A stretch of 64,000 nt of DNA, from the NCBI RefSeq assembly GCF_042231735.1, contig NZ_CP102577.1:2975281-3039280 (forward strand), written 5' to 3'. Source of the DNA: Corallococcus exercitus (lineage in GTDB: Bacteria; Myxococcota; Myxococcia; Myxococcales; Myxococcaceae). Below are positions 10,882-15,548 of this stretch, one piece after another; positions within the stretch are counted from its first letter, which is position 1; the number at the start of each line of letters is the position of its first letter. The notes under the pieces are model-generated. The model ran no database searches. It was not told the origin of the DNA and worked only from the letters and a program-made list of their open reading frames with translations. The translations under genes and the position numbers were made by a program.

Positions 10882-11077
10882 CGACTCACCTCGCCCGCGG
10901 GACCAGCGCCGGCCCTGGGCGCGTGGAGACCCCGCCCCACGCCAATAGCAATTCAGAAGCCACGCGCAGGGGCCCGGCGTCCGCCACGAGCCCTTCTCGC
11001 ACGAGGCCCCCGGCTCGCGTCCGCACGAGACGCGCCCGCGTTGCCAGGGGACGCGAAGGGACCGCCCCGGGGAGCGG

Positions 11078-11433
11078 GTGCTGGTGCGCGGAATGGTGCT
11101 GGAGGCCCAGAGCCGTCAGCCGTTCGGAGGTTCGCTCCAGGCGCAGCTGGAGGTGCGGGGGCCCAAGGGGGACGTCGTCCCCACCAGCACTGCGTCCACG
11201 GCGGACGCCGTCTGGGGCTACGCCTGGCCCATCCCCGCGGGCCAGGCCGGCGGCGAGTGCACCCTGCGGGTCACCTACCCGTGGACGGGCGCGGCCCCGG
11301 CAGAGCGGAAGTTCGACGTGCACGCTCCCTCAAGCAGGTGCGAATGGGTGCGGCAGGTGGGCACCCGGAGCGACGACCGGGCCACGGCGCTGGCGCGGGC
11401 CGCCAATGACGACGTCTACGTCGCGGGCGACAC
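11078..11433 (+). pseudogene. 5' fragment of an SBBP beta-propeller-repeat protein gene, interrupted by an insertion
   Basis: A carboxypeptidase-regulatory-like segment (EVRGPKGDVVPT...GECTLRVTYPW) followed by the SBBP repeat WVRQVGTRSDDRATALARAANDDVYVAGDT, which runs straight into the inverted repeat at 11434. Confidence 0.4.
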
Positions 11434-11449
11434 CCTAAGTAGGTGGCCA
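11434..11449. repeat. Left terminal inverted repeat of the candidate insertion
   Basis: CCTAAGTAGGTGGCCA. Confidence 0.5.
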
Positions 11450-11596
11450 GAAGTTGATGAACAAGCCCTGCGGCCTGAAGGTTCTCAGCGAAGACGCGCG
11501 CCTTGCGAAGCGCAGCGGTGAGTCGCGACGGTGTGCATGCGCGGACGCCAAGGCGGGTCCACGGACAGAGGCGCGCTGGCGGGGAGCGCTTTCGCC

Positions 11597-11621
11597 AAAC
11601 CTGTCCGACAGTCGGACAGGT
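11597..11621. promoter_or_regulatory. Perfect 12-1-12 palindrome, candidate operator upstream of the GntR-family gene
   Basis: AACCTGTCCGAC-A-GTCGGACAGGTT, about 120 bp upstream of the regulator start. A related half-site pair, TCCGAC-T-GTCGGA, recurs at 12742..12754. Confidence 0.4.
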
Positions 11622-11739
11622 TCGCGCTGCATGGGGCCCGGGGCCGCACCGGCACGGGAGGACATGAGGACGGTGTGCCCCCGCGTCCATGTCAGACCCC
11701 TCTGGTTGGATGGGCGAGGCTGGGACGAGGAGGCGGACG

Positions 11740-12987
11740 GTGATGGTGCGGGTGGGGCTCGTGGCGTACGTGGAGGAGCAACTCGAGCGAGAGATTTCGC
11801 TCGGGAGGCTGCCGAGGAACGGGCAGATTGGCTCGGAGCAGGTGCTGGCGCGTCGCTATGGGGTGAGCCGAGGCACCGTGCGCGAAGCGCTGCGGCGGCT
11901 GGCGGCGCGAGGCCTGGTGGTGCAGCGTCCCGGCCGTGTGACGCGTGCGGTGGCGCTGGATGAGTCACTGACGCTGGAGAACCTGGGCCTGGCGCTGCAT
12001 GACGAGCGCTCCGAGGAATGCCGGCGGCTGCTGGAGGGCTTCTTCAGCCTCAAGCGGCAGGTGCTGGTGGAACTCCTGGCCGACTGCTGCGCGAGTGCCT
12101 CCGAGCGGGACGTGAGCCTGCTGGAGGACACCTGCTACAGGCTCTCGGACGCGGCGCACTGGAACCCCGGGGCACGGTGCGCGCAGCTGGAATTCGAGTT
12201 GCTGCGGCTGGCGGCCCAGGCGGCGTCACGTCCAGGGCACCTGCTCCTCATTCAGTCACTGCAACGGGCCCTGAGAGGCAACGCGGCCCGGCTGCTGTCC
12301 TTCATGGGCGGCGAATCCCTGCGCCAGTGGGCCCTGTGCGCGATGCACGCCCTGAGCGAGCGCGACGCGCAGGCACTTCAGCACCAACTGCCTGCGCTGC
12401 TGAAGGCGTGCGATGAGCGCGTGCTGGACGCCTTCTCCCCTGCCCCTCGGGAGCATGCGTCCCCCGAGGCCCAGTGCGCCCCGGAGGACCTCCTCGAAGC
12501 CCCAACGTCAGCCCCTGAGCAGGACGAGGCGCTTGATGCACGCCCGTATGTTGAGGAGCACGGCCTTGATTCCCCTGCGTCAGTCACTGCGCAAGACGAC
12601 GCTTTTGAGACACACCCTTCCGTGGAGGAGCACGGCCTCGGCGCCCCCACGTCAGCCACCGAGGCGCTCGGAACTTCCCCCTGCGCGCCCAATGAGGGGG
12701 GCGTTGGGTGGGCGTGCCGGGCGCGACCTTGGGAAGCCCCATCCGACTGTCGGACGGACTGCATCACGCCACCCAGGCCCCCAGGCCCAGGGGACTGCGC
12801 GCCTCCGGAAGCTCCGTTGCTCGCTCACCAGGGCGACCTGCTTCGTGTGCAGCCACGGCCCTTCGCTTCTTCCATCGTCCATGAAGACCCGCACGTCGCC
12901 CCTCTGAAAGAGCACTCCTGTGCCGACTGCCCCCGACGTATCCGCTTGAGCCGTGCCTCCGCCCCGGATGAGGCAACGAACTCCTGA
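11740..12987 (+). CDS. GntR/FadR-family transcriptional regulator with a long acidic/Pro-rich C-terminal extension
   Basis: GntR winged HTH (SEQVLARRYGVSRGTVREALRRLAARGLVV) followed by a helical FCD-like region. The ORF opens at 11689 (track); the ATG at 11740 sits just before the HTH. The C-terminus has degenerate repeats of the VEEHGL...P(A/T)S type. Confidence 0.65.
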   Translation: MMVRVGLVAYVEEQLEREISLGRLPRNGQIGSEQVLARRYGVSRGTVREALRRLAARGLVVQRPGRVTRAVALDESLTLENLGLALHDERSEECRRLLEGFFSLKRQVLVELLADCCASASERDVSLLEDTCYRLSDAAHWNPGARCAQLEFELLRLAAQAASRPGHLLLIQSLQRALRGNAARLLSFMGGESLRQWALCAMHALSERDAQALQHQLPALLKACDERVLDAFSPAPREHASPEAQCAPEDLLEAPTSAPEQDEALDARPYVEEHGLDSPASVTAQDDAFETHPSVEEHGLGAPTSATEALGTSPCAPNEGGVGWACRARPWEAPSDCRTDCITPPRPPGPGDCAPPEAPLLAHQGDLLRVQPRPFASSIVHEDPHVAPLKEHSCADCPRRIRLSRASAPDEATNS

Positions 12988-12995
12988 GGGCCTAT

Positions 12996-13010
12996 CTAAG
13001 TAGGGAGCCA
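12996..13010. repeat. Internal third copy of the terminal repeat, in direct orientation relative to the left end
   Basis: CTAAGTAGGGAGCCA, 86 bp upstream of the right inverted repeat. With the right inverted repeat it delimits a 101-bp MITE-like unit, 12996..13096. Confidence 0.4.
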
Positions 13011-13080
13011 CCAGTTCCGAGACGAATGCAGGGGCCTTGCCCGTTCCCCCCGCTTCGCCTCGGATTCGTTCAGGGACATT

Positions 13081-13096
13081 TGGCGACCTACTTAGG
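13081..13096. repeat. Right terminal inverted repeat of the candidate insertion
   Basis: TGGCGACCTACTTAGG is the reverse complement of the left repeat with one mismatch. Confidence 0.5.
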
Positions 13097-13355
13097 GGGC
13101 TTTCCAGGCTTCACGAATCAAGGCGGAAGCGACCTGTTCGAGCTGCGCTTCAGCGAAGAGGGGCGGCTGCTGGGGACGTGGCAACAGGGCACGCCCCTGG
13201 ACGACCACGTCACCGGGCTGGCCGTGAACGCGTGCGGCAATGCCATGGTCGTCAGCTCCACCGAGGGCTCGCTGGTTCCCGGCAGCCCGCCCCAGGGCAG
13301 CCGCGATGCGTTCCGCATGAGGCTCCCGCCGCCCACGCCGCCCTTCGGGCGATGA
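13097..13355 (+). pseudogene. 3' fragment of the interrupted SBBP-repeat gene
   Basis: GFPGFTNQGGSDLFELRFSEEGRLLGTWQQGTPLDDHVTGLAVNACGNAMVVSSTEGSLVPG is a canonical SBBP repeat. Confidence 0.4.
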
Positions 13356-13385
13356 CGTCGCGCACGGGCCACTGCGCTCACCGGC

Positions 13386-14219
13386 GTGAAAGCGACTACG
13401 CTTGCGCTCCCCCAGGAGGCGTTCGAAATGCCGTGTATCTTCTGCGAGATTGGAATCTGCGCCGACCCCGGTCACGCCGGGGCTTCAAACCGGGGACGGC
13501 TCCAGCCGGTCAAGATCTTCGACATCCGGCGCTCCATCCCTTCCGCCCCACCCGTCACCCCCTCGTTCGATCCGCCCCGCCCGTCACCCATCCAGCCTTT
13601 GAATGGGCAGGTGCAGGTCAGGGAATACAGGGCGGACGAAGGGGGATGGAACACGGGCTCGCAGCTTGTGAATGATGCGAAGAGCCTCTTCCGGGCGTGG
13701 CTGCACAAGGCGAAACAGGACCGCGGAGAGAACTGGAGAAGCCCTCCGCTGGACAATGAGGACCTGTGCTCGGGAGCCAACTGGGCGCCTGTGGATGAAG
13801 GCATGGACGTCACGAGGCAGATCGTGAAGGTCAACACCCAGCATGGGAGGAATGAAGCGGGCGTCACCCTCTGGAGGGCCTACGGCGACGGCCCGTTCGG
13901 TCCGATGGTGGTCGGCATCCTCATCATGCAGAACGCCGTCTCCCGCGATAACGACGACGGCGTCGAGCACGAGCTGGGCATCCGGTGGCTCGTAGGCCAT
14001 CCGACCATCCGTGGTGTGGGGGCGGCGCTGATGGCGAAAGCGGATGCGCTGCATCAGACCGCCCCGTACAGACGCTTCCCGATGCACGTCACCGCATCCA
14101 GGTCCTCGGTCACCTGGTATCAAAGAAATGGATTCACCGTGGTGGAGCCCGCGACCTGCAACGATGAAGACACATCGTGCGGGTGCTCCATCATGATCAA
14201 AGCGGCTCCGCCCCAGTAA
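13386..14219 (+). CDS. Hypothetical protein with a C-terminal GNAT-acetyltransferase-like fold
   Basis: GNAT motif A-like IRGVGAALMAKAD and motif B-like WYQRNGF. Low-GC3 codon usage (aaa, gat, aat). Start uncertain. Confidence 0.5.
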   Translation: MKATTLALPQEAFEMPCIFCEIGICADPGHAGASNRGRLQPVKIFDIRRSIPSAPPVTPSFDPPRPSPIQPLNGQVQVREYRADEGGWNTGSQLVNDAKSLFRAWLHKAKQDRGENWRSPPLDNEDLCSGANWAPVDEGMDVTRQIVKVNTQHGRNEAGVTLWRAYGDGPFGPMVVGILIMQNAVSRDNDDGVEHELGIRWLVGHPTIRGVGAALMAKADALHQTAPYRRFPMHVTASRSSVTWYQRNGFTVVEPATCNDEDTSCGCSIMIKAAPPQ

Positions 14220-14230
14220 TCCCAGAGGCC

Positions 14231-14611
14231 TCACCGCGACAGCGACTCCAGGACGTGGATCGCCTCGTGGAGGACCGGGAGGAATTCAGGGTCATCGTCC
14301 TCCTCTTCGAAGGCCTCCCGGTGCGCCAGGAGCACCGGCAGCAGTGAGACATCCTCCAGCGCCTCCCCGCGAATCTTGACGTGGGGTTCGGAGAGCCGGT
14401 CCATCAGTTGGGCCAGGATGTTCGCGCCGCGTCCCCGCTCCTTCGGGGAGGCGGACTGAAGCCAGGCCGCGGCCCGCTGGAAGACGTCCACCCCGCCGCA
14501 GTGGTGCGGTTGCCAGATGGCGCGCCATGCGCCTGCGTCCTCCTCGCAGTCCTGGAGCATGCGCGCGAACAATTCATCGGTGGAGAGGTCGGCCTCGGGC
14601 GGGGAATCCAT
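14231..14611 (-). CDS. Hypothetical acidic protein
   Basis: 126-aa ORF convergent with the GNAT-like gene. Coding-like third-position GC. No recognisable domain. Confidence 0.45.
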   Translation of the reverse strand: MDSPPEADLSTDELFARMLQDCEEDAGAWRAIWQPHHCGGVDVFQRAAAWLQSASPKERGRGANILAQLMDRLSEPHVKIRGEALEDVSLLPVLLAHREAFEEEDDDPEFLPVLHEAIHVLESLSR

Positions 14612-14701
14612 TCCACGCGGTGTAGCGCCAGTCGCCCCTACCCTGCTGGACGCCCACGCCTCACAACGTCAGCAAGAAGTTCCCGCCATTGAGGAGCCCG
14701 C

Positions 14702-14995
14702 ATGTCGGCATCCGCTGAAGAGACCCTGAAGCAACTCCGCGCCGCGCGCCAGCAACGCGAGGAGCGCGAGCGGGAGGAGGTGGCGAAGGCCCGGGCCACG
14801 TCCGGCAAGGAGCCCTTCGACATCGAGAAGCTCCACGCCCTCTACAACCTCAGCTGGGATCTTCATGATGCGCCGCTCACGCCCTCTATCATCGAGGATT
14901 ACGAGCGGCGGTACTACCTGGGCTCGCCCCAGGTGAAGACGCTCCAGCAGTTCGCGGAGCTCTTGGTCGTGCTGCGCGACAACGACGCGAACTGA
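14702..14995 (+). CDS. Hypothetical small protein
   Basis: 97-aa ORF with high GC3 and charged helical sequence. Confidence 0.45.
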   Translation: MSASAEETLKQLRAARQQREEREREEVAKARATSGKEPFDIEKLHALYNLSWDLHDAPLTPSIIEDYERRYYLGSPQVKTLQQFAELLVVLRDNDAN

Positions 14996-15017
14996 AGCCT
15001 TGGCCAACCCTCGCGGT

Positions 15018-15213
15018 TGCTGGCGCCAACACGAACGACCTCAAGCTGGCGCGCTCCACGCTTGAATCAATTCCAGTCCGACGACCCCTGCCGAGCCGGA
15101 GCCGTCGTCAGACGCTGTGCGTCGACTGGGGTATGCCTTCAGGCCCGTGCGCGCACAGTGTCGACGCCCTTCGCCACGATGGGTCGTCGAGCGAACCCAC
15201 TCCTGGCTCAACC
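15018..15213 (+). mobile_element. Degenerate, internally deleted C-terminal remnant of an IS5-family (ISL2/IS427-like) transposase
   Basis: Translations in shifting frames give NTNDLKLARSTLESI, ...LGYAF-RPVRAQ and ...RWVVERTHSWLNRF, the conserved C-terminal blocks of IS5-family transposases. There is no intact ORF and no terminal repeats. Confidence 0.5.
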
Positions 15214-15400
15214 GCTTCCCGGCTTCCCGGGACGCCACCTTCGTTTCTCGTGAGGTCCCTGCTTCCTCGGGGTAGGCGTGGCGGAACTCATACGCATCCA
15301 GTTCTTCCTTGATGGCGGCGGCGACCACCACCACGCCAAGCACGATCACGGCCCCCACGGTGATTTCAGGGGCCGCCAGCACGCAGAACCCGACTCCCAC
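15213..15400 (-). pseudogene. Truncated paralog of the membrane-protein gene at 33703..34329
   Basis: MGVGFCVLAAPEITVGAVIVLGVVVVAAAIKEELDAYEFRHAYPEEAGTSRETKVASREAG is about 85% identical at DNA level to 33961..34114. The homology stops where the IS5 remnant begins. Confidence 0.35.
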
Positions 15401-15403
15401 GGC
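15247..15403. repeat. Copy 1 of an approximately 155-bp dispersed inverted repeat (paralogous coding segment)
   Basis: Its reverse complement aligns to 33961..34114 at about 85% identity by eye. Confidence 0.5.
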
Positions 15404-15548
15404 GGCGGCGATTGACGATCCTCGGGCTCCGCGTCGCGCGAGCCCTTGGACTCGGCGTTGACGTGGCGCAGGCGGAGAGGAAAAGACGAAGTGCGCTGCA
15501 TGCTCGCAGATGCAGGGCGTGGGTCACGGCGGGGCGCGGGGATACCGC

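Follow-up and report, generated by a model that had tools for sequence, protein, structure and literature searches.

The DNA examined here, referred to as the window, is a stretch of 64,000 nucleotides from the complete genome of Corallococcus exercitus (10,139,229 bp; contig NZ_CP102577.1, positions 2,975,281 to 3,039,280), and the neighbouring proteins encoded in it include XHF28728 to XHF28734. Between positions 11434 and 13096 of the window, a gene for a GntR-family regulator is enclosed by short inverted repeats, and the enclosed segment splits a reading frame of the SBBP-repeat type. An earlier note, made from the sequence alone, took this segment for a single 1.66-kb insertion; our analysis resolves it into two abutting units, each bounded by TA, which are probably both transposons, the larger of them belonging to a family of regulator cassettes found throughout the genus.

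Two abutting TA-bounded units

The inverted ends described in the earlier note were recovered by repeat search: the 16-mer CCTAAGTAGGTGGCCA occupies 11434 to 11449 on the forward strand, and its reverse complement, with one mismatch, occupies 13081 to 13096. This outer inverted repeat can be extended to 30 nucleotides with 80% complementarity (11433 to 11462 and 13068 to 13097). A third copy of the end is also present, with three mismatches, at 12995 to 13010, one base from the position of 12996 first given for it, and pairs with the right end over 32 nucleotides at 72% (12996 to 13027 and 13064 to 13095). Dinucleotide-preserving shuffles of the window gave a mean of 0.17 matches to the 16-mer at three or fewer mismatches, and none of 100 shuffles reached five. 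A single substantial gene lies between the repeats (open reading frame [ORF] 11689/11743 to 12987); its product matches Pfam GntR (PF00392) with an E value of 2.6e-13 and 49.8 bits against a cut-off of 27, and when a myxobacterial IS630 transposase served as a tblastn query, no IS630 transposase was detected in the window or in the 23 related Corallococcus loci, taken from a genome scan, that served as our comparison set. The claim that the segment carries a regulator and no transposase was thus upheld.

When paralogous units, without the window, were used to build a profile of each end of the cassette family, these profiles placed a left end of the family type at 11438/11439 (E 5e-16), and a right-end module at 12880 to 12987, continuing to 12996 (E 1.2e-12). 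In place of one element there are therefore two, a regulator unit of 1,559 bp (11438 to 12996) and a miniature inverted-repeat transposable element (MITE) of 94 bp (12999 to 13092), with TA flanking each (Table 1). The MITE-like unit of about 100 bp that had been noted at the right end, as 101 bp from 12996 to 13096, does exist, but as this separate element and not as the terminus of the regulator unit. It is not detected by the family right-end profile, its arms alone resemble the terminal repeats, and its DNA is predicted to form a hairpin of -19.5 kcal/mol (z-score, -2.8).

All four termini (AGTAGGTGGCCAG..., GATAGGCCCTCAG..., AGTAGGGAGCCAC... and AGTAGGTCGCCAA...) stand in register directly after a TA, reading TA followed by AG(T/A)TAGG. 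The boundaries first proposed were accordingly close but not exact: the true ends start with AGTAGG, and the C-TA that precedes them is part of a CTAG target in which TA has been duplicated. The search for target-site duplications that the earlier note had recommended was positive, with TA at 11436 to 11437, 12997 to 12998 and 13093 to 13094 and the C and G of CTAG just outside. Duplication of TA within CTAG is the insertion signature of IS630/Tc1-mariner elements, and three in-register TAs within one CTAG are the expected residue of two successive TA-duplicating insertions into the same site. Over 25 nucleotides the termini match one another at 12 to 19 positions, where about 6 are expected by chance, and match the family consensus at 16 to 19. 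The best-matched pair is the outer one (11438 and 13092, 19 of 25), and because of this the composite 1.66-kb segment could also move as one. No RNA family of Rfam was matched between 11000 and 13500, and a scan for consensus promoters and terminators found none.

Table 1. Features of the two-element segment and of the reading frame that it interrupts (window coordinates)
Feature	Position	Strand	Evidence and remarks
5' part of interrupted host ORF	11078..11437	+	Truncated MG2-like domain, then SBBP repeat; ends ...VYVAGDTL; Pfam MG2 (weak), SBBP
First target TA	11436..11437		Read from sequence; C of CTAG is 11435
Regulator unit, 1,559 bp	11438..12996	+	Left terminal repeat, putative operator, FadR/GntR gene, right-end module with degenerate right terminal repeat
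Left terminal inverted repeat AGTAGGTGGCCAGAAGTTGATGAAC	11438..11462	+	19/25 against family consensus AGGAGGTCGCCAGGAGTTCGTCAAC; 19/25 against outer right terminus
Putative operator, perfect palindrome AACCTGTCCGAC-A-GTCGGACAGGTT	11598..11622		About 120 to 145 bp upstream of the start codon
FadR-subfamily GntR regulator, 414 aa	11743..12987	+	Alternative ATG at 11689 gives 432 aa; core is residues 1 to 235; tail variable, low-complexity
Three 72-nt tandem repeats in C-terminal tail	12483..12663	+	Repeat search
Degenerate second operator palindrome TCCGACTGTCGGAC (putative)	12742..12755		Inverted-repeat search
Family right-end module	12880..12996	+	nhmmer E 1.2e-12 over 12880 to 12987
Degenerate right terminal repeat of regulator unit	12972..12996	reverse complement GATAGGCCCTCAGGAGTTCGTTGCC	16/25 against family consensus
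TA joining regulator unit and MITE	12997..12998		Read from sequence
MITE, 94 bp	12999..13092		Terminal repeats 12999 to 13027 and 13064 to 13092; interior unrelated to regulator unit
Last target TA	13093..13094		Read from sequence; followed by G (13095) of CTAG
3' part of interrupted host ORF (GGFPGFTNQGGSDLFELRF...)	13095..13355	+	In frame with 5' part after excision; completes SBBP profile

The interrupted reading frame

Removal of both elements together with two of the three TAs rejoins the flanks in frame (...VAGDTLGGFPGFTNQGG... / ...DDVYVAGDTLGGFPGFTNQGGSDLFELRF...). The excision join originally proposed, 11433 to 13097 (GDT/GFPG), is likewise in frame, but the better join retains one TA (11437 to 13095) and reads GDTLGGFPG: it scores 21.9 bits against Pfam SBBP, over positions 1 to 38 of the 38 in the profile and with a gathering cut-off of 20.5 bits, compared with 18.0 for the alternative join and 18.1 for the interrupted ORF. 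In the frames that are joined, the GC content at third codon positions (GC3) is 0.91 in the 5' flank and 0.86 in the 3' flank, a strong coding composition. The split frame, the inverted-repeat bounds and these GC3 values support the suggestion that an SBBP-type frame had received an insertion, but the host is evidently itself a truncated gene remnant and not an intact gene. Its ORF begins inside the MG2 domain, and one SBBP repeat alone scores in it, rather than several tandem repeats in an intact secreted protein.

The left edge of the host ORF coincides with that of a strain-specific island of 4.46 kb (11065 to 15529), which is missing from both of the related genomes that were read, those of C. 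macrosporus and C. exercitus AB043A. In C. macrosporus no more than about 50 bp separate a gene for a 341-aa protein from a PMT_2 gene at the corresponding position, which in C. exercitus AB043A is occupied by other genes. Besides the MG2-SBBP remnant and the two elements, the island contains a GNAT-like gene (XHF28732) and two small ORFs, as well as a fragment of 189 bp (15222 to 15410) with 96% identity to a section of a C. macrosporus DUF6310 gene.

A family of regulator cassettes in Corallococcus

Homologs of the regulator numbered 371. The best 120 of these were essentially all from Corallococcus, a handful being metagenome entries, and at least 19 distinct sequences among them, in 16 clusters, came from the window's own genome. 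Five regulators of this genome are 87 to 96% identical and have a common C-terminus, according to a comparison of protein sequences; the proteins encoded by sister copies include XHF27007, XHF30316, XHF30377 and XHF30421.

At the DNA level the units have common boundaries. Homology between the window and the comparison loci begins at 11437 to 11446 in 8 loci and some tens of bases deeper in the others, and position 11438 is exactly where identity to the paralogous units increases from 0.25 to 0.63. The left-end profile matches 16 loci, in which homology begins at the common left terminus wherever that end is on the contig, and the right-end profile finds the conserved right-end module in 12, in addition to the window. 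The two ends are mutually inverted repeats in every unit examined, about 25 nucleotides long with the consensus AGnAGGTCGCCAGnAGnTCGT..AC; at one locus (L019) the right end matches the left-end profile in reverse with an E value of 3.5e-4. The flanks of the units are unrelated to one another, except at one orthologous site that is common to five species. There are consequently multiple copies with common boundaries and unrelated flanks, and the regulator gene, its putative operator and the terminal repeats appear from these comparisons to constitute an old, genus-wide, multi-copy family. The segment had been described as a non-autonomous element that captured, or is fused to, a regulator gene; the element does carry a regulator and no transposase, but membership of a multi-copy family takes the place of an ad hoc capture by a MITE. 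Recurrence of its ends, one of the checks proposed in the earlier note, was seen in a diverged form: the exact 15- or 16-mer is absent from the 23 related loci, and a family version of it is present.

At the orthologous site in five species (L003, L006, L016, L019 and L020), the flanks are 86 to 97% identical and the unit is 75 to 92% identical, a pattern that may reflect either unusually fast evolution of the unit or its overwriting by gene conversion from paralogs. Contig ends at eight other loci (L009, L012, L013, L014, L015, L018, L022 and L023) fall within the first 125 or so nucleotides of the regulator coding sequence (equivalent to 11736 to 11864 of the window). As draft contigs break there, this stretch must be identical among several paralogs of the respective genomes that are otherwise diverged.

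The regulator and its putative operators

An identical 414-aa sequence is present at NCBI, annotated as a FadR/GntR regulator of C. exercitus. Sequence matches to PDB entries cover the winged helix-turn-helix, with weak full-length matches to FadR and NanR, and the Pfam FCD domain was not detected in the protein. An AlphaFold2 model (pLDDT, 79) has a winged helix-turn-helix followed by a seven-helix domain, and the top Foldseek matches of this model in the PDB (FadR, NanR, McbR, PmiR, DhdR and VanR) all belong to the FadR subfamily and extend over 223 to 260 aligned columns. The predicted structure therefore has both hallmarks of that subfamily, a GntR-type N-terminus and an all-alpha C-terminal domain of the FCD type. 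All copies retain an intact core of 235 residues, for which the median dN/dS of about 0.34 denotes purifying selection.

In nearly every unit a perfect palindrome of 21 bp, CCTGTCCGAC(A/T)GTCGGACAGG, lies about 120 to 145 bp upstream of the start codon. Its core occurs nowhere else in the window and in none of the unrelated loci, and the regulator presumably controls its own gene through this site. Most paralogous units have a second, well-preserved palindrome 1.0 to 1.15 kb past the start codon, and in three of them (L007, L010 and L021) the upstream operator segment has been tandemly duplicated through an insert of about 95 nucleotides, giving two upstream palindromes. A stand-alone copy of the operator, possibly accompanied by a second, weaker one, is located upstream of a DUF7305 gene adjoining a regulator unit (about 11087 to 11203 of L029, equal to 9087 to 9203 of L007), and hints that the regulator may have targets outside its own cassette.

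The tail of the annotated gene (12463 to 12987) has a weak coding signal, with a GC3 of 0.70 compared with 0.85 in the core; it holds the three 72-nucleotide repeats and the remnant of the second operator and overlaps the right-end module that is conserved at the DNA level. Part of it may be untranslated. A small minus-strand ORF at the left end of the unit was considered and rejected, since indels upstream of the regulator are not multiples of three and L019 has a large deletion there.

Target sites and end sequences of related elements

All six independent right ends of the older copies are flanked by T(A/G), and a C precedes this dinucleotide in five of the six. The flanking dinucleotide and the first base of the element together form the stop codon (TGA, TAA or TAG) of a convergent ORF of 29 to 539 codons; in five of the six right-end sites the ORF has at least 130 codons, and one is the annotated DUF7305 gene. 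The right ends that sit exactly on neighbouring stop codons are those of L001, of the orthologous L003/L006/L016/L019, of L007, L008 and L011, and of the window. The older right ends are consistent with elements having entered stop codons at the TA of TAA or TAG, and later drift from TAA to TGA would explain their present flanks.

Corallococcus and Myxococcus are rich in genes for IS630 transposases. Two full copies of IS630-family elements with a DDE_3 transposase could be read, at 11058 to 12282 of L024 (C. macrosporus) and at 905 to 2129 of L030 (M. xanthus), both flanked by C-TA on one side and TA-G on the other. Their terminal repeats (AACGACCGATCGTGATTC and AACCGAAGTTCGTGATTC) are related to each other and not to the cassette ends, the cassette repeat reading AGTAGGTSGCCA... 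and the IS630 copies AACGACCG... and AACCGAAG.... No terminal repeats were found at a third IS630 locus (L031) on its contig of 1,240 bp.

BLAST of the end against plasmids returned chance matches only, and a scan of viral contigs with the end pattern returned 0 matches. The same pattern gave three matches in metagenomes, of which two look like chance and one is a real MITE. The latter (L027, 1104 to 1215), on a contig of 50% GC, is 108 bp long, has the ends AGTGGGTAGCCAAAATGTTTTTGAC and AGTAGGTAGCCAAAAGTTTTTGAAC and shows a TA duplication in CTAG. Because this MITE has homologous ends and lies in an unrelated contig of 50% GC, the cassette end type evidently occurs well outside the myxobacteria.

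Discussion

We consider it likely that the segment from 11436 to 13094 consists of two adjacent non-autonomous transposons of the IS630/Tc1-mariner type, inserted into a CTAG within the MG2-SBBP remnant, and that the larger of the two comes from a regulator-cassette family distributed across Corallococcus. The larger element would be one of a set of cassettes of about 1.5 to 2.2 kb with terminal inverted repeats of about 25 nucleotides, and its sole cargo would be an autoregulated FadR-subfamily GntR factor with palindromic operators of its own, an architecture that would make it a mobile insertion cassette (MIC). The smaller element would be a MITE with the same kind of ends. By this mechanism, a DDE transposase of the IS630 family encoded elsewhere would bind the 25-nucleotide ends, excise the element and paste it into a TA; both the family of this enzyme and mobilization in trans are proposed by analogy with known elements. 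A wider proposal is that transposase-less IS630-type cassettes of this kind exist genus-wide, that transposition seeded dozens of regulator paralogs per genome, which then came under purifying selection and partial gene conversion, and that a young subfamily (at least five copies, 87 to 96% identical, and the attached MITE) appears to be active in C. exercitus; we advance it tentatively, the chance that it holds in full being in our estimation a little short of even.

Several observations weigh against the preferred explanation. The gain in the SBBP score upon restoration of the frame is modest, about 4 bits. The comparison with orthologous loci proposed in the earlier note yielded no empty site, because the whole 4.46-kb island is absent from both relatives that were read and the host gene is a remnant; a search with the restored host protein found homologs for the MG2 part alone, and the SBBP part was without a detectable homolog. 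The older copies lack TA at the left end, and only 7 of the 12 independent sites have a pyrimidine-purine dinucleotide that could derive from TA. A transposase whose element has matching ends was looked for and not found: the two readable IS630 copies differ in their ends, and none is present in the window or the 23 loci. Finally, most copies are old and diverged (62 to 85% nucleotide identity), and one is fixed at a common site in five species, so that present-day mobility is suggested for the young subfamily only.

The units might alternatively be ordinary paralogs that have spread by segmental duplication and gene conversion, their ends being regulatory or structural sequences such as protein-binding sites and the SBBP fragment having come to adjoin one of them by rearrangement. 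Much in the data is compatible with such a history: the units at the five-species site diverge faster than their flanks (75 to 92% compared with 86 to 97%), the first 125 or so nucleotides of the coding sequence are identical among paralogs to an extent that breaks draft assemblies, the young copies differ from one another in a clustered manner, purifying selection acts on the proteins, and the stand-alone operator upstream of the neighbouring DUF7305 gene suggests real regulatory roles. Segmental duplication does not, however, leave more than 10 copies in unrelated surroundings with both boundaries matching to a few bases, nor does it produce three in-register TAs in CTAG, a split ORF that rejoins in frame or T(A/G) at six of six right ends. 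The same end type also bounds a cargo-less MITE of 94 bp here and another of 108 bp in an unrelated organism, and we regard this account as improbable.

A cassette moved by site-specific recombination, integron-like or in the form of an invertible segment with the repeats as recombinase sites, would account for the inverton-like placement of inverted repeats around a 1.6-kb segment and for the superficial resemblance to attC of the imperfect palindrome of about 100 bp downstream of a single gene. We give it very little credence, since ORF listing and Pfam annotation revealed no integrase or invertase adjoining the window copy or three Pfam-annotated related loci, the units are scattered singly at unrelated sites and form no arrays, the left end is a full 25-nucleotide repeat instead of a 7-nucleotide core site, and the TA duplication and split ORF indicate cut-and-paste insertion. 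A chance inverted repeat in an ancestral two-gene locus draws on the absence of an empty site and nothing more, and it is effectively refuted by the shuffles, in which 0.17 matches are expected and the observed count is not attained in any of 100, and by the homology of the ends to those of the paralogous units, with the left-end profile matching in 16 loci.

Taken as transposons of the IS630/Tc1-mariner type, the two elements resemble several described systems. MICs are defined as passenger genes between inverted repeats of the insertion sequence (IS) type, without a transposase and mobilized in trans (PMC4337579), and the regulator unit, in which the GntR gene is the only gene and no transposase is present, conforms to that description in its architecture. 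With MIC231 of Bacillus cereus and the TnXax1-related MICs carrying transcription activator-like effector (TALE) genes in Xanthomonas (PMC4337579) it has in common one or more passenger genes, IS-type inverted repeats, target duplications and the lack of a transposase of its own. It differs from them in that its ends and target are of the IS630/Tc1-mariner type (TA in CTAG) and not of the IS4/IS231 or Tn3 type, in that the cargo is always one regulator, apparently autoregulated and FadR-like, and in that the family is large (at least 19 distinct proteins in one genome), old (62 to 85% nucleotide identity) and under purifying selection.

ISY100, a member of the IS630 family, inserts at TA with duplication of the TA and requires no more than about 30 bp from each end in cis (PMC2170065). 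The units described here are like IS630, ISY100 (PMC2170065) and the associated MITEs in their imperfect terminal repeats of about 25 nucleotides, in insertion at TA with duplication and in the CTAG context, and the 94-bp unit is a typical MITE; unlike IS630 elements, they are without a DDE_3 transposase, and the larger is 1.56 kb long owing to the regulator gene. Transporter IS (tIS; PMC9330008) likewise have IS-type ends enclosing a gene that is not concerned with transposition, with transcriptional regulators among the passengers, but a tIS retains its transposase, whereas the cassettes have none. The regulator itself is comparable to FadR, NanR, McbR and VanR in its predicted winged helix-turn-helix and all-alpha effector domain and in having a GT...AC palindromic operator upstream of its own gene. 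In contrast to these known members of the subfamily, its effector domain has diverged beyond recognition by Pfam FCD, its tail is long, variable and repeat containing, and its gene resides in a cassette that is bounded by repeats and has a further operator downstream. No description of the cassette family was found in literature searches, which test its novelty only to a limited extent.

The MITEs and mobile insertion cassettes known so far are usually few in number, young and varied in their cargo. In the present case a single design, in which a FadR-like regulator with an operator on either side is enclosed by terminal repeats, is recurrent across a genus. Because dozens of diverged copies of the cassette are scattered through Corallococcus genomes, the sequence comparisons suggest that this regulator family arose by transposition. 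Should the units be mobile now, or have been so in the past, transposition rather than tandem duplication would drive a lineage-specific expansion of transcription factors, every insertion would supply a new neighbourhood with a ready-made regulator together with the site that it binds, and the family would provide a bacterial case of transcription factors multiplied in this manner. TA sites are few in a genome of 70% GC, the stop codons TAA and TAG being some of them, and elements that target TA or CTAG in such a genome would land on stop codons, with the terminal base of the element regenerating the stop.

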